Assembly: GCF_000012285.1 (NCBI RefSeq)
Contig: NC_007181.1
Span: 643,370-667,369 of the forward strand
DNA from: Sulfolobus acidocaldarius DSM 639
GTDB taxonomy: Archaea > Thermoproteota > Thermoprotei_A > Sulfolobales > Sulfolobaceae
DNA: 24,000 nt
Direction: 5' to 3'
Position numbers and translations under genes: made by a program. Numbering within the stretch: the stretch's first letter is position 1; each line of letters opens with the position of its first letter. Shown in pieces: positions 6,076 through 19,752 of this stretch. Under the pieces are notes generated by a model, which was not told the origin of the DNA, did no database searches, and was given only the letters and a program-made list of their open reading frames with translations.

Positions 6076-7102
6076 TCATTTCCAACTTTTTGGGTATATG
6101 TCTCTTTCCATAAAAATTCTTTTAGGCCTTATAACTTCGCCTTTTTTACCAGATTCTAATTGCTTACTTTCTACAATACTCTCTCCTATAGCCACAAGTT
6201 CACCCTTAAGAGTTAGAACCGCTACGTCTTGATTTTTACGAAAGTTCTGATAAGCCAGTATACCAGGTAGGTTTAATTTAGCCCCATATGTTATTGCGTT
6301 TACTGCCGTATCGCTCACTATAACTTTTGGAATTCCGCACACCCCGTACTCCATAGGGAGCAGAATTCTTCTCAACTCACTTTCATCTTTACAGTTTCTG
6401 TATAGGTATAATGATTCTGAAACTTCTTGGAGTGTAACCATATTAGTTTTTTCTGTAAATATACCAGACCTAATTCTTCTCAACTCTCTCATATGTGAAC
6501 CACAGCCTGCTATAACACCCACATCATGACACAATTTTCTCATATAAGTTCCTGCGTCAGACTGGACTCTTAGTAGTATTAGTTTATCCTGCATATCTAA
6601 AATATCGATAGCATAAATTCTCCTTTTTCTTATCCTTCTTTTCACTGAGGATCTTACTGGCGGTTTCTGATATATTTCACCTACGAATTGACTTATTATT
6701 TCTTTTAACTCCTTTTGGTCTACATTACAGTGCATTTGCAATAAGCAAATGTATTCCTTTCCACTCTTACTTATGTAATTCATTAATTTTGTTGCGTTCT
6801 CTAATCCTATCGGTAATACTCCTGTAACCTTGGGATTTCCCCACCCGTTATACGGGTTCTAGGGTTCCTCCATGTCCTGCTTTGGTAATGTTAAAAAGCT
6901 TTTTTACCCAATAAGCTACCTCATGGCTTGTTGGACCAGGTGGTTTATCTAAATTGATTATGGAGTTTTTTATCAAAGATTCGATTGGTCTCTTATCTGC
7001 ATAATAGCCAAATTTCTCTTCAGTGTCTTCTTCTCTCAAGATTTTCCATCTATTTTCATAACTACAAAAAGAATCTATCTTGTTTATAAATTCATAAATC
7101 AT
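6076..7102 (-). CDS. cbf5: H/ACA RNP pseudouridine synthase Cbf5 (TruB family), two exons joined by removal of a 22-nt intron
   Basis: Exon 1 (7102..6858) ends at ...LDKPPGPTSHEVAYWVKKLFNITKAGHGGTL. Exon 2 (6835..6076) begins DPKVTGVLPIGLENATKLMNY... and carries a C-terminal PUA-like region. The exons total 245+760 = 1005 nt, giving 334 aa plus a stop. Confidence 0.88.
6836..6857 (-). other. mRNA intron in cbf5 (archaeal splicing-endonuclease type); boundaries can slide by 1 nt
   Basis: The mRNA segment ACCCGUAUAACGGGUGGGGAAA (22 nt, not a multiple of 3) contains an in-frame UAA. Removing it restores GGTLDPKVTG. It contains the internal hairpin ACCCG-UAUAA-CGGGU. Confidence 0.7.
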
Positions 7103-7438: not shown

Positions 7439-10174
7439 TTACTGCCAGTACTTGCGTGTTCTTAAAAACTTTCTTTCCTCCTCAAGTAGACTCTCAAAAA
7501 ACCTGTCCTCTCCATCGCTGAGCTTATTAAGGACTTTCCCAATGTTATTTATTCCTACTCCTCTTGCACTCAATCCTATGGCAACATATTTTTTGTAAGT
7601 TGAAAACATTGATGAAATATTCTGAAGTATTTCAAATTTCTTTTTTTCGTTCTTCGAGATCTTTGAACCTTTAATGACCTTTTTAATAATTTCCACACTT
7701 TCTTTATCATCCTCATCAGTTACGGTTAAGAATATTGAGCCACACTTGGTACACCTATCCGGTACCTCAGCAGCATAATATATATTATTCCACCCGCACA
7801 CCATACAAATTATTTTAACCTTATTATTTAACAATTTACGTCTAAATATCTCTATCATTACTCCTTTTTCATCTGAATGTGCTGCAACAAATAGTTTGTT
7901 AAGGAATTCTTTAGCTAGTGGGGAGAAGCCTGGTACTTCTATACATTCCCAAGTAAGTCGAGTTAGGAATTCCCTAAGTGTTACATCATAGTTTTTATAC
8001 ATAAGTTCTTTCACTGCTTCTTCTCCAACTAAGGTATCAGTATAAGCTTTAAGGAGAGTCTGGGAGAATGTTATATCGGTTTTTTGTTTGTCTATAAGAC
8101 CGAATCTTTCCGCCTCAATCAAGAGTTTCCATTTATACTGTGGACTTTCTTTTATAGCCCTCTTCAGAAGGTCTTCAAATTCACTAGAACTTAGACTATT
8201 TAGTATTTTTATTGCCTTTGTAAATTCCTCCTTTGATACTGGAACTAAGGAGGCTATTGCTATATGATAGGGATCAGACCTATACGTAGTTCTCACTCCT
8301 TTTACTTGGGTTAATAAAAGTGATAATAACGCACCTAGGGTATTATTACCTCTACTTCCTAATCCTGCATGTAAAACTATTAGATCATTATTTATTTCTA
8401 CAAGGATTTTACTTTTAGTTGGAACAGGGTATCCTCGCCTTTTTTGTTCTTCTAGTAACGAAGAGATCTTTTCAAGTATTTCTTTCGGTAGGTCTATTTG
8501 ATCTCCTCTTTCTATTCTTTCAATATAATCATACACCTTAATGGAAATTTCTCTTTCAACTGGAATTGACTCACCAAACCAGCTTGGCAAGACTCCGCTT
8601 TTCAGTTGTGCGTTTTCGACATAAATACGATTTTCCTCTATTGATACTACTCTCCAAATTTTTCCTCCCAGTATGAATACGGTATTTTCATCCAGTGTAG
8701 CCACGAATTCATAGTCTAACGTTCCTATTTTAGTGTTAGAAATATGGTCTATGACTATGTAATCTTTTATAGAGTCTGGTATCATATTCGTACTATAATA
8801 ATATCTCCATAATCTTCCTGCCGGTGATATCTTATCTTTATTCTTTCTAATTATTCTTGCAGATTCAAGTATACTTAATGTTTCTTCAAATTCCTCTTCT
8901 GTTAAGTCGTTGTATTGAAATGATGATTTGATTAAGTTAAAGATTTCTTTCTTATCTGTAATGCCTTCTAGTACTAGACCTGCAATTTCGTGTGCCATAA
9001 CATCATAAGGTTTAGGTTCTACTATTGGTTTTTCTAGGTATCCTTCCTTTAAATTGTCAATTATACTTTTACATTCTAATATGTCAAAAATATCATGAGA
9101 AGGTAATAGAAAACCACTAGAAACTTTATTTATTGAATGTCCACTTCTTCCAATTCTTTGTACAAGTCTTATAACTTGCTTTGGAGAGGTATATTGAATT
9201 ACTGCATTAATTGTTCCTACATCTATTCCAAGTTCTAAGCTTGAAGTGGCTATTAATGCGTCAAGATTGCCAGTCTTAAATTCTTTTTCAGCTTCTAATC
9301 TTATTTCTCTCGATAGAGAGCCATGATGTGTTCTCACTTTTAGTTGAGACAATTTTGACAATTCGGAGGCTAGAAATTCTGTACTCTCTCTAACGTTAGT
9401 GAAAACAAGAACTGGTTTATTCTCTTTTATCAATTTTTCAAGTTCTCTTATTCTAGCCAGCGTATCTGGATGTAAGCCTGTCTTATATGATAACTCAGCA
9501 AGATCCTTTGAAACTGTTGGTATGACCAACTCTATTTTTACATCTTTTCTGGTATTGTATTCGGCGACCTCTACGTTCCTTCCAATAAACCTCTTCGCTA
9601 ATTCAATATCGCCTATTGTTGCTGAAAGTCCAATCAGTTGAATCTCATACTTACTTAACCTCTTTAATCTTTGAATAGCTAAAAGTAATTCATAACCCCG
9701 TTTCTCATCAAGCATTTCTTGTAATTCATCTATAATGATCCATCTTATATTTCCTAATAATTCTCTCATTTTCTGGTTTACTAGTAAATAGAGCAATGTT
9801 TCAGGTGTTGTTAGAAGTAAATCAGGTGGATCTTCCAAGATCCTTTTTCTTTGCCTCTCCGTTGAATCTCCGTGTCGAATCGCTATTTTTATTCCTAATG
9901 CGCTACCTATCCTACTTAATCTATCTTCAAGATCTCTATTTAATGCTCTTAATGGAGTAATATATATAGCAGAAATTTTCTCAGCATTTGAGCTTAGTAT
10001 TTTATAAAAAACTGGGAAAATAGCAGTTTCTGTTTTTCCAAAGCCAGTCGGTGCAATAACAATAGTGTTCTTACCCTTGAGTATAATTGGTATTCCTATT
10101 TTTTGTATAGGGGTAAGACTCTTATAGCCAAGTTCGTTCAACTTATTGATAAATGTCTGAGAAACACTTATCAT
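7439..10174 (-). CDS. lhr: Lhr-type large SF2 helicase with C-terminal zinc ribbon
   Basis: Motif I PTGFGKT, motif II IIIDELQ, motif III LSATIG, then HHGSLSREIRLEAEKEFKTG, ATSSLELGIDVG and motif VI QRIGRSGH. This is the Lhr-family order. It is followed by a long Lhr-associated C-terminal region and CMVCGW...CTKCGS. Confidence 0.85.
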   Translation of the reverse strand: MISVSQTFINKLNELGYKSLTPIQKIGIPIILKGKNTIVIAPTGFGKTETAIFPVFYKILSSNAEKISAIYITPLRALNRDLEDRLSRIGSALGIKIAIRHGDSTERQRKRILEDPPDLLLTTPETLLYLLVNQKMRELLGNIRWIIIDELQEMLDEKRGYELLLAIQRLKRLSKYEIQLIGLSATIGDIELAKRFIGRNVEVAEYNTRKDVKIELVIPTVSKDLAELSYKTGLHPDTLARIRELEKLIKENKPVLVFTNVRESTEFLASELSKLSQLKVRTHHGSLSREIRLEAEKEFKTGNLDALIATSSLELGIDVGTINAVIQYTSPKQVIRLVQRIGRSGHSINKVSSGFLLPSHDIFDILECKSIIDNLKEGYLEKPIVEPKPYDVMAHEIAGLVLEGITDKKEIFNLIKSSFQYNDLTEEEFEETLSILESARIIRKNKDKISPAGRLWRYYYSTNMIPDSIKDYIVIDHISNTKIGTLDYEFVATLDENTVFILGGKIWRVVSIEENRIYVENAQLKSGVLPSWFGESIPVEREISIKVYDYIERIERGDQIDLPKEILEKISSLLEEQKRRGYPVPTKSKILVEINNDLIVLHAGLGSRGNNTLGALLSLLLTQVKGVRTTYRSDPYHIAIASLVPVSKEEFTKAIKILNSLSSSEFEDLLKRAIKESPQYKWKLLIEAERFGLIDKQKTDITFSQTLLKAYTDTLVGEEAVKELMYKNYDVTLREFLTRLTWECIEVPGFSPLAKEFLNKLFVAAHSDEKGVMIEIFRRKLLNNKVKIICMVCGWNNIYYAAEVPDRCTKCGSIFLTVTDEDDKESVEIIKKVIKGSKISKNEKKKFEILQNISSMFSTYKKYVAIGLSARGVGINNIGKVLNKLSDGEDRFFESLLEEERKFLRTRKYWQ

Positions 10175-10214
10175 AAACTACATAATAACCTTATTTCTGA
10201 GACTAATATAAGAT

Positions 10215-11915
10215 ATGTTGAGAAAACACGTTATAATAATAGTCTTTTTAGTCCTTGAATTTCTCATATTTACGTATTTAGTTAATACTGGATATTTGAA
10301 TATTTCAAATATAAACCTATATATATTCACTTTATATCTCATAAGTGTTATTATAGCTATAAATGGAATAATAATCTTTATTTTGACTGGTTCCTTAATT
10401 ATTTCATTTTCCTATTTTCCTGTCCAATTATTCATTTATCAGCTTATAGCAGGTAATATTACAATTTCATTTCTAACAGATGTTCTATTGCCGAGTCTAA
10501 TAGGATATTTTTATCTTTTATTTTTCATTTCAATAATTACGTGGATTATAAGAAGGAATATATCAGATTCATGGTTGGATCAGATAAGAACTTACGGTCA
10601 CAAGTTTTCTATCAAGAGACTCGCTATTTCTTTGGTCATAAGTTTAGTTGAATTAATTCTTCTTAAAAATTATTATTTATTTTTTGGTTCACTCCTTTCT
10701 TCTATAGGTTTTTCATTTTTTGGAGAGATTACAGATGTTCCGTTGGTTCTTCTTTCATGGATAATCTTTCCTTATTCGATTTCTCCAAAAATTCGGACTG
10801 AAAATAAGGGTATATGCATAGGTAAAATAGTTGGAGTTTTATCTAAGGGTAGTATCCTAGATTCTTCTTTAGGGAATATCACAACAACTTCTAAGTACAA
10901 ATGGATAAAATTAAATCAGGATTTTTGTGTTAACTTTAGTAATTCTAAAAATTTCAACTCAATAATTATAGGTACAAGCGGATCGGGCAAGTCAAGTCTG
11001 GCTACTCTGATTTCAAAAAAGCTTAACGTGTCATTTACCATATTTGATCTTCATGGAGAATATTCTATTCCTAATGCAGTTAAGATTGATATGTCAAAAG
11101 TTACCATAAATCCACTAAGTCTATTTGGTCGAAGTCCAAAGGAAAGAGCATTAGAAGTAAGTTACATGCTCAAGAGTCTCTTTAATCTAGGCAATATCCA
11201 GACAATTGAGCTATCTAACCTAATACTTGAGGCTTATATGGAGAAAGGAATAGATCCTGATGATATGGACACATGGAAGAATCCTACGCCAAATTTTAGG
11301 GATTTGCTTCTCTTGCTCGAACGTAAGAAAAAAGCTGCCATAACTTCGCAGGATATATCCAAATATCAGTCAATAGAACCTTATTTGATATTTCTTTCCT
11401 CCACAATATTTACCCAAAATAACGTCAATATTATTGATATCCTAGAAAAGAATTGTGTACTTGATTTTTCTACTATACCAACCAATGAGGTTAAACACAT
11501 AGTAATGGAGACTATTCTTAAGGGAATACAGAGCTACATGTATTTGGAGAAGTTTCCTGATATAAGGAAAATGATAATCATAGATGAAGCACCATTTCTG
11601 CTGAGTAAAGATTCATCAAGGGAGTTGATTAATAGATTATTTTCAGAAGGGAGAAAGTTCGGGTTTGGTTTTGTGGTAATTTCGCAAACAGTAGATTATG
11701 TCAAAGATCTGTTTGGAAATGCATATCTCACTTTTGTATTAAATGTATTAGAACCTAGAGAATCAGAATATTTAAGTAGATATTTTGGTGGACAAGATAA
11801 CGATATGTATTTAGCTGTATATGAGACTTTACAAAAATTACCCAGAGGATTTTTTATTGTAAGGGATTTATTAGGTAGATTTATATATTTAGTTCAGGCT
11901 GACTTTGGTGAGTAA
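10215..11915 (+). CDS. membrane-anchored HerA/VirB4-like (DUF87, FtsK-HerA superfamily) P-loop ATPase
   Basis: Residues 1 to about 195 contain roughly 6-8 hydrophobic helices. Then come Walker A IIIGTSGSGKSS, the family hallmark FDLHGEY, INPL, Walker B MIIIDEAPFLL and EGRKFGFGFVVISQ. Confidence 0.8.
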   Translation: MLRKHVIIIVFLVLEFLIFTYLVNTGYLNISNINLYIFTLYLISVIIAINGIIIFILTGSLIISFSYFPVQLFIYQLIAGNITISFLTDVLLPSLIGYFYLLFFISIITWIIRRNISDSWLDQIRTYGHKFSIKRLAISLVISLVELILLKNYYLFFGSLLSSIGFSFFGEITDVPLVLLSWIIFPYSISPKIRTENKGICIGKIVGVLSKGSILDSSLGNITTTSKYKWIKLNQDFCVNFSNSKNFNSIIIGTSGSGKSSLATLISKKLNVSFTIFDLHGEYSIPNAVKIDMSKVTINPLSLFGRSPKERALEVSYMLKSLFNLGNIQTIELSNLILEAYMEKGIDPDDMDTWKNPTPNFRDLLLLLERKKKAAITSQDISKYQSIEPYLIFLSSTIFTQNNVNIIDILEKNCVLDFSTIPTNEVKHIVMETILKGIQSYMYLEKFPDIRKMIIIDEAPFLLSKDSSRELINRLFSEGRKFGFGFVVISQTVDYVKDLFGNAYLTFVLNVLEPRESEYLSRYFGGQDNDMYLAVYETLQKLPRGFFIVRDLLGRFIYLVQADFGE

Positions 11916-11917
11916 TT

Positions 11918-12235
11918 ATGTCTGAGGACGATTCTAAAAAGGAGCCTGAGCCAGAGGAAACTGAGGCAGAAATAAAGCATGAAGAAATTAGCAGAGAAGA
12001 GGATGACGAGGGGGGAGAGTTTTCTACAGTTACTATTTCAGATATCGAGATGTTACTAAAAGATACAGAAATATGGGACAAACTGTTAAGGAACGAATTA
12101 AGTATTGAGGAAGCTAAAAAAATGTTTGATGATGTAGCTAGGTCGTACTCAAAAGCCGATAAGAAGAAAAGAAGAGTAGAGAAAAAGCCTAAAAAAGGAA
12201 AAGTGACTAAGAAATCTGATGAGGAAGAAGAATGA
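11918..12235 (+). CDS. rpo13: small charged protein, probably RNA polymerase subunit Rpo13
   Basis: 105 aa with an acidic N-terminus, a short helical core (TISDIEMLLKDTEIWDKLLRNELSIEEAKKMF) and a Lys-rich tail. Size, architecture and position immediately upstream of PCNA1 match my memory of Sulfolobus Rpo13. Not verified by search. Confidence 0.55.
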   Translation: MSEDDSKKEPEPEETEAEIKHEEISREEDDEGGEFSTVTISDIEMLLKDTEIWDKLLRNELSIEEAKKMFDDVARSYSKADKKKRRVEKKPKKGKVTKKSDEEEE

Positions 12236-17696: not shown

Positions 17697-18971
17697 AAAG
17701 TGAAAGTGTGAGTAAGATCCTAAACTATTCTCCACGTAAACTCCATCTTTTCCATTCCATATACCCTTTCCGTGTTTATTTTTGAAGGCAAAATTTACAT
17801 CCCCAACACTTACAGCTTTTGACACGTGAAATTCATGTCCTCTTATACTTTCTCCTTTGCTGGAAAGTAAGTTATCCTTTTCCGTCTCAAGTTCGGTATA
17901 GCCAATAGTGAGTTTATCCTTTGCCTTTATCTGTATATCGTATAGTCCTATCATTCTGTAACTTTTTTCATTTATTATTTCGTTCGACAAAAACATGAAT
18001 CCACCACATTCCGCTAAAAGCTTTACTCCTTTCTCCACGTTTCTCTTTATCCAATCTTTAGTTTTAGTAGAATTTTCGAGTTCCTCTAAATGTAACTCTG
18101 GATATCCACCACCTATGTAAATAAAGGATGGTTGGTCAGCTGGGGCATCATTATTAAGTGGGCTAAAGAATTCCACGTCATACCTCTTTTTTAAAATATC
18201 TATATTCTCGTCGTAATAAAACGAAAACGCTGAATCATATGCCACATAAGCCTTACCTACTACATTTCGTTCCTCAATTTCATTTGACTCCTGTAGTTCA
18301 TTTGCTTCCTCTGCAATTTCCACTATTTTGTCAACATCTACATTCATTTCAATCAAGTTAGCTGTTGCATTAATGACATCCTTTGCGTTCTTAAAATCCT
18401 CAGTTGTATAAAGACCTAGATGTCTACTGGGTACAGAAAGACTCTTATCTATAGGGAGATACCCAAGTACTTCAACGTTTTCAGGTATCGATTTTTTGCA
18501 GTAATCTAGATGTTTCTCAGACGCAATGTAGTTGAATATTACACCTCTCACGTTAGCGTTTCTGTATTCTCTCAATCCTTTAACTATAGCACCAACTGTA
18601 GAAGATAGATTGCTACAGTTGATCACAAGGATCAGAGGTGTATGAGTCAATTCAGACAATTTATATGTACTATAATCTTCGTATAATCCGTCATAAAGAC
18701 CCATCACTCCTTCTATGATTCCCAAGTCAAAGTGCTTACCATATTTTGCAAGACTCGAATATACCCCTGATTCTCCCATTAACCATAAATCAAGGTTTAT
18801 CACTGGATGTCCACTAGCTATTTTATGATACATAGGGTCGATAAAATCTGGACCTACTTTATATCCTCTTACCTTATATCTCTTCGATAGTACTTTGATT
18901 AGCCCGGCTGTAACTAACGTTTTACCTGAGTTACTTCTATCAGAGGAAATAATAATACGGGGAAACCTCAT
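17667..18971 (-). CDS. cbiA: cobyrinate (or related tetrapyrrole) a,c-diamide synthase, CbiA/CobB family
   Basis: N-terminal dethiobiotin-synthetase-like P-loop SDRSNSGKTLVTAGL, and a C-terminal glutamine amidotransferase domain with the nucleophile elbow AECGGFMFL and the His of RGHEFH. Confidence 0.85.
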   Translation of the reverse strand: MRFPRIIISSDRSNSGKTLVTAGLIKVLSKRYKVRGYKVGPDFIDPMYHKIASGHPVINLDLWLMGESGVYSSLAKYGKHFDLGIIEGVMGLYDGLYEDYSTYKLSELTHTPLILVINCSNLSSTVGAIVKGLREYRNANVRGVIFNYIASEKHLDYCKKSIPENVEVLGYLPIDKSLSVPSRHLGLYTTEDFKNAKDVINATANLIEMNVDVDKIVEIAEEANELQESNEIEERNVVGKAYVAYDSAFSFYYDENIDILKKRYDVEFFSPLNNDAPADQPSFIYIGGGYPELHLEELENSTKTKDWIKRNVEKGVKLLAECGGFMFLSNEIINEKSYRMIGLYDIQIKAKDKLTIGYTELETEKDNLLSSKGESIRGHEFHVSKAVSVGDVNFAFKNKHGKGIWNGKDGVYVENSLGSYSHFHFSRTRRLLSF

Positions 18972-19008
18972 GATAAAAAATAAAGTTATGTCAGATAAAT
19001 TGTTAATT
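18972..19008. promoter_or_regulatory. 37-bp divergent promoter region between cbiA and PCNA3
   Basis: A/T-rich AAAAATAAAG (18975..18984) lies about 29 nt before the PCNA3 ATG. TTTAT on the other strand lies about 25 nt before the cbiA ATG. There is room only for leaderless transcripts. Confidence 0.35.
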
Positions 19009-19752
19009 ATGCGTATAGTTTATGATGACGTAAGAGACTTGAAAAACATAGTAGAGACTTTGACTAAGTTTATAGATGAGGGTTTGTTTGAAATAGGTCA
19101 GGACGGCATAAGACTAGTGGCTGTAGACAAAGCGCATGTATCCTTAATTAATATCGAATTGTATAAGGAGCTATTTAAGGAGTATGAAGTAGAAGATGAG
19201 TTTAAATTTGGTTTTAACAGTCAGTATCTAGCTAAAATTTTAAGTATCGCCAAAAGAAAAGAGGAAATTTCAATAGAGTCCGATTCTCCTGAAAGGGTTA
19301 AAATAACATTAGGCGGTGCCTTAAATAGGGTGTTTATAATAAATAATATTCAGGTATCCCCGCCTGAGGTTCCTGAAGTTAATTTGGAATTTGAAGTTAA
19401 AGCCTCATTGTCATCAAAAGCGTTTAAGACTACAATTAACGAGATATCTGCAGTAACAGATACAGTGGATATTATTGCAGTGGAGGATAAAGTTATTTTG
19501 AAAGGGGAGGGAAAGGAGGGTAGTCAAATAGAAAATGAATTTAGCAAGGATACTGGAGCTATTTCTGATATGGAGTTTAAGAACGAGGCTAAATCTCCAT
19601 ATGATGTAAATTACCTCAGTGATATTTTATCTTTGACAAATCTTTCAGATTATACTAGGTTAGCATTCTCTACCGAGAAGCCTTTAGAATTGGAATTTAA
19701 TATGGAAGGAGGAGGGAAAGTTACTTATTTACTTGCACCCAAACTATCTTGA
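19009..19752 (+). CDS. pcna3: DNA polymerase sliding clamp subunit PCNA3
   Basis: From ATG 19009 the sequence MRIVYDDVRDLKNIVETL...NDEFKFGFNSQYL...FNMEGGGKVTYLLAPKLS matches the S. solfataricus PCNA3 pattern as I recall it (MKVVYDDVRVLKDI...FNMEGGGKVTYLLAPKV). The track ORF start at 18895 is an upstream read-through overlapping cbiA. Confidence 0.9.
   Translation: MRIVYDDVRDLKNIVETLTKFIDEGLFEIGQDGIRLVAVDKAHVSLINIELYKELFKEYEVEDEFKFGFNSQYLAKILSIAKRKEEISIESDSPERVKITLGGALNRVFIINNIQVSPPEVPEVNLEFEVKASLSSKAFKTTINEISAVTDTVDIIAVEDKVILKGEGKEGSQIENEFSKDTGAISDMEFKNEAKSPYDVNYLSDILSLTNLSDYTRLAFSTEKPLELEFNMEGGGKVTYLLAPKLS

Follow-up and report, generated by a model that had tools for sequence, protein, structure and literature searches.

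Members of the Sulfolobales repair ultraviolet (UV) damage by exchanging chromosomal DNA, and the import side of this exchange (CedA, CedA1, CedA2, CedB and CedD) has been defined genetically. CedD, CedE and UpsC were defined by Recalde et al. 2025 and by a study of S. islandicus of 2025; CedB and CedD are required for import only, and DNA export has been ascribed to 'unknown ATPases' (PMC11868833). The papers of 2025 posed as an open question the way in which DNA is released from the donor and the identity of the helicase or ATPase that prepares it. Ced and Ted pili have been described, and HerA-like genes were noted in Ted loci (Beltran et al. 2023). Here we analysed a 24,000-nucleotide stretch of the genome of Sulfolobus acidocaldarius DSM 639 (the window, positions 643370–667369 of an assembly consisting of one contig of 2,225,959 bp) and describe one of its genes, Saci_0815, which encodes an ATPase of the FtsK/HerA superfamily predicted to be anchored in the membrane by six N-terminal helices. 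We consider Saci_0815 a candidate for a missing part of the Ced DNA exchange, with every statement about its function reached by inference from sequence and predicted structure.

The gene had been pointed out by a model that saw only the letters of the DNA and a list of open reading frames (hereafter the original prediction), at window positions 10215–11915. The frame is open there and translates into 566 residues. Its genome coordinates (653584–655284) coincide with those of SACI_RS03900/Saci_0815, annotated as a 'DUF87 domain-containing protein' in a published gene table (PMC8578740). The gene and the parts of its product are as follows.

10215..11915, forward strand: Saci_0815, 566-residue ATPase of the FtsK/HerA superfamily (arCOG00285), predicted to be membrane-anchored; from the open reading frame, Pfam DUF87 and AAA_10, PMC8578740 and the 32-sequence alignment
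10215..10784, forward strand: N-terminal membrane domain (residues 1–190), six predicted transmembrane (TM) helices and a juxtamembrane helix at 172–188; from hydropathy, AlphaFold2 helices and a positive-inside analysis of 32 orthologues
10785..10949, forward strand: neck (residues 191–245) with two long beta-strands, 200–211 and 228–239; from AlphaFold2 secondary structure
10950..11912, forward strand: RecA-like P-loop motor (residues 246–566), predicted DndH-C/VirB4-C-like fold; from PDB profile search, Foldseek and PADLOC
10971..10994, forward strand: Walker A, GTSGSGKS (residues 253–260), with G253, S255, G256, G258, K259 and S260 invariant
11574..11594, forward strand: Walker B, IIIDEAP (residues 454–460), with D457, E458, A459 and P460 invariant
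11646..11663, forward strand: EGRKFG (residues 478–483), candidate arginine finger/sensor region, followed by S490-Q491; from the alignment

An alternative public gene call gives a product of 539 residues whose first residue is residue 28 of the open reading frame (window region 10215–10295), which would remove the first TM helix. The ATG at 10215 is supported as the favoured start by an N-terminal K/R-H motif that is aligned in the orthologues and by the promoter geometry described below. The orthologue alignment comprises 32 sequences of 34–53% identity. Saci_0815 belongs to arCOG00285, since the S. islandicus protein is 39% identical over its full length and Saci_0815 is orthologous to M164_1755. 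In the literature that we searched, there was no discussion of Saci_0815, of its orthologues or of arCOG00285, and the combination of six TM helices with a DndH-like motor appears undescribed in the literature that could be searched. We assign the family and the architecture with high confidence.

The original prediction had described an N-terminus of about 195 very hydrophobic residues with 6–8 helices. This region is indeed hydrophobic and is predicted to be membrane-embedded by hydropathy, by an AlphaFold2 model built from the family alignment (pLDDT 86.3, pTM 0.77) and by the distribution of lysine and arginine, the topology analysis that the prediction had suggested. The model and the Kyte-Doolittle peaks place helices at residues 2–24, 33–58, 61–79, 84–113, 133–150, 153–169 and 172–188, and the model adds a short helix at 119–127. 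The last of the seven is weakly hydrophobic (mean hydropathy 0.96, versus about 2 for the other helices) and probably interfacial, so we count six TM helices and one interfacial helix rather than 6–8. Positive charge is concentrated in the loop at 113–132 (on average 4.6 lysine plus arginine residues per orthologue, n = 32), with 1.3 at the extreme N-terminus, 1.7 after residue 189 and fewer than 0.4 on average in each remaining loop of the domain. These values fit a predicted topology in which an N-terminus on the inside is followed by a first set of four TM helices, a cytoplasmic loop rich in basic residues, a further pair of TM helices, the interfacial helix and a cytoplasmic motor. Conserved positions in the membrane domain are RR(113–114), G158, W182 and P186, and the neck contains the invariant residues G203 and W230. 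Searched by itself, the TM domain gave no match to any NCBIfam model, including those for CedA, CedA1 and CedE, and is thus not CedA-, CedA1- or CedE-like by sequence.

All motifs named in the original prediction (GTSGSGKS, FDLHGEY, IIIDEAP, EGRKFG and SQ) were found and are invariant in the 32 orthologues, at the positions listed above for the Walker motifs, throughout FDLHGEY (residues 277–283) and at E478, R480, K481, F482, G483, S490 and Q491. A role of EGRKFG as an arginine finger or sensor is suggested by analogy with HerA/FtsK motors. Pfam places the motor in the FtsK-HerA superfamily, with DUF87 at 30.3 bits (cut-off 23.2) and AAA_10 at 30.1 bits (cut-off 27.5). P-loop_TraG reached 26.7 bits (cut-off 25.8) but covered only model positions 205–295 of 413, and TrwB_AAD_bind stayed below its cut-off (15.8 versus 20.5 bits). 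The NCBIfam models were all far under their cut-offs: TraC was the best, at 53 versus 567 bits and over motor residues 407–494 only, followed by CedD (NF053655; 50 versus 600), HerA_Thermprot (42 versus 800), CedB (NF041017; 41 versus 700) and helicase_HerA (18 versus 970). TIGR00929, a model of bacterial VirB4, lacks the sensitivity needed to recognise VirB4 proteins of archaea.

The comparison of profiles that the original prediction had called for thus left the HerA, CedB and VirB4/TraC families under their cut-offs, and the nearest relative was found elsewhere. In a search of PDB sequences with the family profile, DptH (7es4) matched at E 8e-28 with an alignment spanning the whole motor, and HerA at 72 bits split into two pieces. 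Foldseek also retrieved 7es4 (E 5e-17, TMt 0.74), together with VirB4 (4ag5, TMt 0.72–0.74) and HerA (4d2i, TMt 0.51), and PADLOC gave DndH 93 bits (E 3e-27, model positions 1332–1615 of 1678) and HerA 49 bits. On these sequence and model comparisons, the motor is closest, among characterised proteins, to the C-terminal domain of DndH/DptH (7es4) and has in common with it the NPLSLFG and FNLGxxQ motifs and a W...PT..DV stretch. Saci_0815 is nevertheless not a full DndH protein. DndH is soluble, has about 1,700 residues including an extended N-terminal part, and is encoded together with dptF/dptG beside the dnd genes (compared here with the Massilia dptFGH locus), whereas in Saci_0815 a six-TM anchor replaces the N-terminal part and no dptF/G lies nearby.

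Other described systems resemble Saci_0815 in some respects and depart from it in others. CedB (Saci_0748) and CedD (Saci_0667) belong to the same superfamily, are likewise anchored in the membrane at their N-termini and are found in the same organisms, and genes of the Saci_0815 family lie near cedA1-cedA-cedB in many lineages; however, Saci_0815 has six predicted TM helices where a hydropathy scan of the CedB-like reading frames of its relatives gave about two hydrophobic segments, and it lacks the domain similar to the VirB4 N-terminal domain. The functions of CedB and CedD are genetically proven, whereas that of Saci_0815 is our proposal. VirB4/TraC/TrbE proteins share the fold of the motor (the VirB4 C-domain) and account for the weak TraC match; in Saci_0815, TM helices stand in place of their N-terminal domain, and it falls outside that family. 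The layout of membrane anchor and motor recalls the coupling proteins VirD4/TraG, as do the weak P-loop_TraG and TrwB_AAD_bind matches; Saci_0815 appears to lack the all-alpha domain and is chromosomal and vertically inherited. FtsK and SpoIIIE likewise combine a polytopic N-terminal membrane domain with a ring-motor ATPase from this superfamily; Saci_0815 has neither their linker nor their gamma domain, its motor belongs to another subfamily, and Pfam FtsK_SpoIIIE gave no match at E ≤ 1e-2, which places it outside the FtsK/SpoIIIE family. HerA shares the superfamily and the DUF87 match over cut-off, and databases label arCOG00285 'HerA helicase', yet the N-terminus of Saci_0815 consists of six TM helices and a two-strand neck.

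HerA, CedB and CedD are each encoded elsewhere in the same genome, and Saci_0815 is therefore a further paralogue. Genuine HerA (858 bits) lies at about 40 kb, CedD (732 bits) is a 546-residue reading frame at about 529 kb, and CedB (823 bits) occupies genome positions 597897–599666; the last two agree with the published assignments. The original prediction had observed that no nurA, mre11 or rad50 accompanies the gene, and none was found at the locus. In a maximum-likelihood tree of motor domains, the TM-anchored proteins, comprising those of Sulfolobaceae and the syntenic distant orthologues, form one clade (support 92/89), whose sister group consists of soluble proteins of 540–600 residues that reach 102 bits to the defence protein Mad8. 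CedB forms a separate clade (100/99), and the tree does not resolve the positions of CedD, of a VirB4-like paralogue and of DptH-C, which all stand on long branches. The suggestion that the protein might be a paralogue of CedB therefore holds only in a distant sense. A tblastn search of 72,556 plasmids returned DptH (best E 3e-16) and cyanobacterial DUF87 proteins, with no Sulfolobus conjugative-plasmid ATPase among the matches.

Three identities were considered and rejected. HerA was ruled out by domain content (there is no HAS-barrel), by partners and by the score of 42 against 800 bits; CedD or a variant of it, by the presence of CedD as a different gene of the same genome; and a plasmid-derived conjugation ATPase, by the plasmid search and by vertical inheritance.

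In a set of 5.8 billion proteins, about 100 close homologues were found, all of them from Sulfolobales, beyond which the E-values fall off to 1e-12. An exhaustive profile search gave 251 representatives at E ≤ 1e-30, of which roughly the top 70 have a multi-TM N-terminus. The gene is present in single copy in 34/34 Sulfolobaceae sampled (33 and S. acidocaldarius). Our wider sample of the class Thermoproteia comprised 151 genomes, in which families are labelled f2 to f18 and genomes carry G-numbers; 87 of them had a match at E ≤ 1e-20, including three families of other orders at E 1e-94 to 1e-109. No match was found in families f5, f10, f14 and f18, f9 had weak partial matches in 2/25 genomes only, and outside the class one of about 173 genomes had a match. 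As judged from these searches, the arCOG00285 family is a separate, vertically inherited family confined to the class Thermoproteia.

The genomic context, for which the original prediction had asked for a survey of conservation, proved to be a strongly conserved chromosomal linkage. The arrangement Lhr<>ATPase-rpo13-pcna(-amidohydrolase), where <> marks divergent genes, was found by tblastn with the window proteins in 14/14 Sulfolobaceae loci, and Lhr, the ATPase and PCNA occur together in most loci of distant families. In eight loci of 15–20 kb from distant families, only the genes of the Lhr/ATPase/rpo13-pcna block remain syntenic among those of the window, and this is therefore not a general conservation of gene order. 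Together with the plasmid search, the synteny speaks against plasmid conjugation ATPases with no chromosomal linkage as the closest homologues, one of the findings by which the original prediction would have been overturned.

In many lineages, the block adjoins the ced genes: it is 0.6–19 kb away from cedA1-cedA(-cedB) in most families other than the Sulfolobaceae and in four genera of the Sulfolobaceae. In G075 (f2), genes for a CedB-like protein, a CedA-like protein, CedA1 and Lhr are co-directional, and the ATPase, an Rpo13-like protein and PCNA are encoded divergently. G021 (f11) has cedA-cedA1, a gene for a 656-residue PAPS-reductase/4Fe-4S protein (PAPS, 3'-phosphoadenosine 5'-phosphosulfate) and Lhr<>ATPase, followed by genes for a small basic protein and PCNA; G130 (f16) and G128 (f17) have cedB-cedA-cedA1, a few genes and then Lhr<>ATPase; and in G029 (f8) the ATPase gene and one other are divergent from cedA1-cedA-cedB. 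The ced genes beside the block in f2, f8, f16 and f17 were identified with NCBIfam models (CedA1 at 121–127 bits, over cut-off; CedA-like at 138–171 bits; CedB-like at 90–277 bits). In f11, cedA1 and cedA were identified by reading frame and tblastn, and the CedB-like gene by NCBIfam. The distances between the ATPase and CedA genes, from the coordinates of two class-wide searches, are as follows.

Family f12: 0.6 kb
Family f8: 3 kb
Family f2 (7 genomes): about 4 kb
Family f4: 6 kb
Family f16 (7/7 genomes): about 7 kb
Family f11 (about 20 genomes): 6–15 kb
Family f17: 12 kb
Family f15: 19 kb
Nine Sulfolobaceae genomes of four genera: 4–15 kb
Other Sulfolobaceae genera: 50–260 kb
The genus of S. 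acidocaldarius: 173–193 kb

Across the 151 genomes, the ATPase and CedA occur together in 86, the ATPase without CedA in one (an assembly of 130 contigs), CedA without the ATPase in 39 and neither in 25. Both are missing together from one genus of f11, 3/4 genomes of f12, f14 and f18. A tally of CedB at E ≤ 1e-40 under-counts divergent CedB-like genes, as became clear when the search was repeated at E ≤ 0.001. Complete genomes of f11 and f2 encode three separate ATPases, namely a divergent CedB-like protein beside cedA, a CedD-like protein elsewhere and the orthologue of Saci_0815. Parts of the block persist where the ATPase is missing: in f5, Lhr-cedA1-cedA are still adjacent, and in f10, a PAPS-reductase-like gene is divergent from cedA-cedB with PCNA nearby. 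Because of these remnants, the ancestral order appears to have been cedB-cedA-cedA1-(x)-Lhr<>ATPase-rpo13-pcna and to have been broken up later in several Sulfolobaceae, S. acidocaldarius among them. The idea of a DNA-transfer translocase raised in the original prediction gains support from the many other families in which the block adjoins cedA1-cedA(-cedB), a linkage that S. acidocaldarius itself does not show.

Three further observations were made. In f2 and f5 (L057:3504-6669, reverse strand; L065:8450-13084, reverse strand), Lhr is the gene immediately upstream of cedA1-cedA and has the same orientation, so Lhr itself may belong functionally with Ced. In several families, a protein of about 650–680 residues is encoded between the ced cluster and Lhr/ATPase (forward strand at L056:2072-4042, L053:6800-8809, L054:11711-13699 and L067:10481-12370; reverse strand at L058:9591-11582). 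Its N-terminus is Zn-ribbon-like and is accompanied by PAPS-reductase (Pfam, 138 bits) and 4Fe-4S domains; this domain make-up recalls DndC-type enzymes, and the neighbouring motor is DndH-like. No orthologue of this protein was found in S. acidocaldarius, where the best match (E 3e-10) is a PAPS-reductase paralogue. A further VirB4-like ATPase of S. acidocaldarius, of 503 residues (genome 424334–425845, forward strand; L009:937-2448), matched the NCBIfam VirB4_plasma model at 73 bits and the CD1110-type model at 66 bits, and may be left over from a conjugative element that had integrated.

We propose the following function. The six N-terminal TM helices would hold an intact FtsK/HerA-superfamily motor on the cytoplasmic side of the membrane. 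The structural relatives of this motor (DndH-C, VirB4, HerA and FtsK) act as hexameric rings with a central pore through which nucleic acid is threaded, and Saci_0815 is by analogy most likely a membrane-anchored hexameric ring that moves DNA at the membrane with ATP. The nearest relatives are motors that track DNA, which is why DNA is taken as the substrate, and on this analogy we hold a DNA translocase to be rather probable. That it works with the Ced pathway of chromosomal DNA exchange and repair is a tentative proposal, which the synteny and co-occurrence bring somewhat short of an even chance. In the most specific version of this proposal, Saci_0815 would be a coupling or export-side motor carrying Lhr-unwound DNA to or from the CedA/CedA1 conduit. 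A reading confined to the donor side, in which a coupling-protein-like hexamer would take over DNA unwound by the divergently encoded Lhr and drive it into a CedA/CedE-CedA1 conduit, is unlikely. If true, such a donor-side motor would complete a relaxase-free, conjugation-like export pathway.

Several points weigh against a role in Ced. In S. acidocaldarius, 193 kb separate the ATPase gene from cedA, and 54 kb separate it from cedB. CedA is present in 37/37 genomes of f5, f9 and f10, and a clear ATPase orthologue in none of them (0/9, 2/25 with weak partial matches and 0/3), so Ced can work without the ATPase. UV induction, which the original prediction had suggested as a check, is not indicated: Saci_0815 is absent from the published list of UV/TFB3-induced genes that contains ced and ups genes (PMC11823120, Table 1), and the A(N)TTTC UV motif was not found in the 40-nucleotide region upstream of the gene. 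The nearest characterised motors, DndH and Mad8, are proteins of defence rather than transfer. The conserved neighbourhood could reflect inherited gene order instead of shared function, and genomes within one family are not independent samples. The non-essentiality of the S. islandicus orthologue M164_1755, which may also be listed here, is neutral and neither supports nor refutes the proposal.

The alternative that survives best is a motor partnered with Lhr in the maintenance of the cell's own chromosome (for example repair, or replication/transcription conflicts, on membrane-proximal DNA), perhaps with PCNA, in which case the ced genes would be nearby only through old gene order. It concerns the immediate neighbours of the gene, which are as follows.

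7439..10174, reverse strand: Saci_0814, Lhr-type helicase, head-to-head partner; Pfam DEAD, Helicase_C, WH_Lhr and DEAD_assoc
10175..10214, no strand assigned: divergent Lhr/ATPase intergenic region of 40 nucleotides with two interdigitated A/T boxes; from the sequence
11880..11890, forward strand: TTTATATATTT in the 3' end of the ATPase gene, about 30 nucleotides before the rpo13 ATG; from the sequence
11918..12235, forward strand: Saci_0816, rpo13, beginning 2 nucleotides past the ATPase stop; Pfam PF12136, 66 bits
12232..12984, forward strand: Saci_0817, PCNA subunit, overlapping rpo13 by 4 nucleotides; NCBIfam NF002218, 316 bits, over cut-off

Reading frames and Pfam/NCBIfam matches agree with the neighbourhood that the original prediction had given, with Lhr divergent at 40 bp and rpo13 after 2 nucleotides, then PCNA1, and the Rpo13 gene has been named Saci_0816 (PMC2675907). 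The order in S. islandicus is the same (pcna1 M164_1753, rpo13 M164_1754, M164_1755 and Lhr M164_1756). In the intergenic region, ACATAATAA lies about 30 nucleotides before the ATPase ATG, and TAATATAAG (reverse strand) about 30–38 nucleotides before the Lhr ATG; the same two boxes recur at the orthologous loci of other genera and would represent interdigitated promoters of two leaderless genes. The S. islandicus Lhr promoter (SiL_1597) has been reported with an aCcr1 (ccr-2) box and repression by aCcr1; no exact match to this box (AGTATTA or TGTATTAT) was found in the 40-nucleotide region, and Saci_0814 is listed as non-cyclic. TTTATATATTT overlaps codons of the conserved I-Y-L-V C-terminus, similar A/T-rich stretches occur at the same place in other genera, and it is probably a promoter of rpo13-pcna1 inside the ATPase gene. 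With such an internal promoter, adjacency is no proof of co-transcription of the ATPase with rpo13-pcna1. In transposon sequencing of S. islandicus M.16.4, M164_1755 ('HerA helicase', arCOG00285) and rpo13 tolerated insertions and pcna1 was essential; the internal promoter would explain how insertions upstream of an essential gene are tolerated.

For the partnership with Lhr, then, speak the tightest and widest linkage of the gene, which is with Lhr (head-to-head over 40 nucleotides with shared A/T boxes) and with rpo13-pcna, as well as the lack of a nearby ced gene in S. acidocaldarius and of UV/TFB3 induction. However, a conserved PIP box (the PCNA-interaction motif) was looked for in the Saci_0815 family and not found, hence there is no sign of direct PCNA binding, and the probable promoter of rpo13-pcna1 loosens the tie on that side. 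The ATPase is moreover almost confined to CedA-bearing genomes (86/87) and was lost together with CedA in several lineages, and the position of Lhr directly upstream of cedA1-cedA in f2 and f5 means that Lhr may be Ced-linked too. We consider this explanation unlikely.

The motor might instead be a VirB4-like assembly ATPase, extracting or inserting the pilin subunits CedA1/CedA2 or energising assembly of the Ced conduit with no pumping of DNA. The predicted fold is as near to the VirB4 C-domain as to DndH-C, TraC is the best NCBIfam match and cedA1 pilin genes lie nearby in many lineages, but the protein lacks the VirB4 N-terminal domain reportedly shared between CedB and CedD (PMC11868833), a CedB-like gene already stands beside cedA in those lineages, and the highest sequence similarity is to the DNA-tracking motors DndH and Mad8. 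An assembly role thus seems quite improbable.

A chromosome-clearing or segregation motor like FtsK, at the division site of these Cdv-dividing crenarchaea, appears a little less probable still. The motor domain of E. coli FtsK is non-essential, as is the S. islandicus orthologue, and a replication gene as neighbour and the polytopic anchor fused to a motor of this superfamily, as in FtsK and SpoIIIE, would fit such a role. Neither a Pfam FtsK_SpoIIIE match nor a gamma-like DNA-recognition domain was found, however; the gene was not found in f5, f9 and f10 of the same order, Saci_0815 is not mentioned in recent work on Sulfolobus segregation, and its head-to-head neighbour is among the genes listed as non-cyclic.

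Least probable, and in our view very doubtful, is a membrane-bound surveillance motor of DndH/Mad8 type that inspects or expels incoming DNA, since the kinship of the motor with DndH/DptH and Mad8 and the 102-bit match of the soluble sister group to Mad8 are set against a gene that differs from defence islands in belonging to the core genome, in being present once per genome and passed on vertically, and in its constant synteny, without adjacent dptF/G, dnd or nuclease genes and without the N-terminal part of DndH of about 1300 residues.

Among these readings, the participation of Saci_0815 in the Ced exchange is the one we put forward, as the family has the features expected of a candidate for the donor side: it is conserved, predicted to be membrane-anchored, of a DNA-tracking motor type, almost restricted to Ced-bearing genomes and apparently part of an ancestral cluster with cedA1-cedA-cedB and Lhr. 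Since the orthologue is non-essential in S. islandicus, the idea is directly testable with deletion mutants and the existing export and import assays. Even if the link to Ced fails, the family would represent an unstudied membrane motor in every Sulfolobaceae genome sampled.

Two minor observations concern other parts of the window. A reading frame of 285 residues with a TTG start (18895–19752, forward strand) cross-matched distant PCNA genes in tblastn (E 1e-8 to 1e-17) and is therefore a second PCNA paralogue about 6 kb from the first. Cbf5 is present as two reading-frame fragments on the reverse strand (6076–7102), with the DKCLD domain at 6848–7102 and TruB_C/PUA at 6076–6783.

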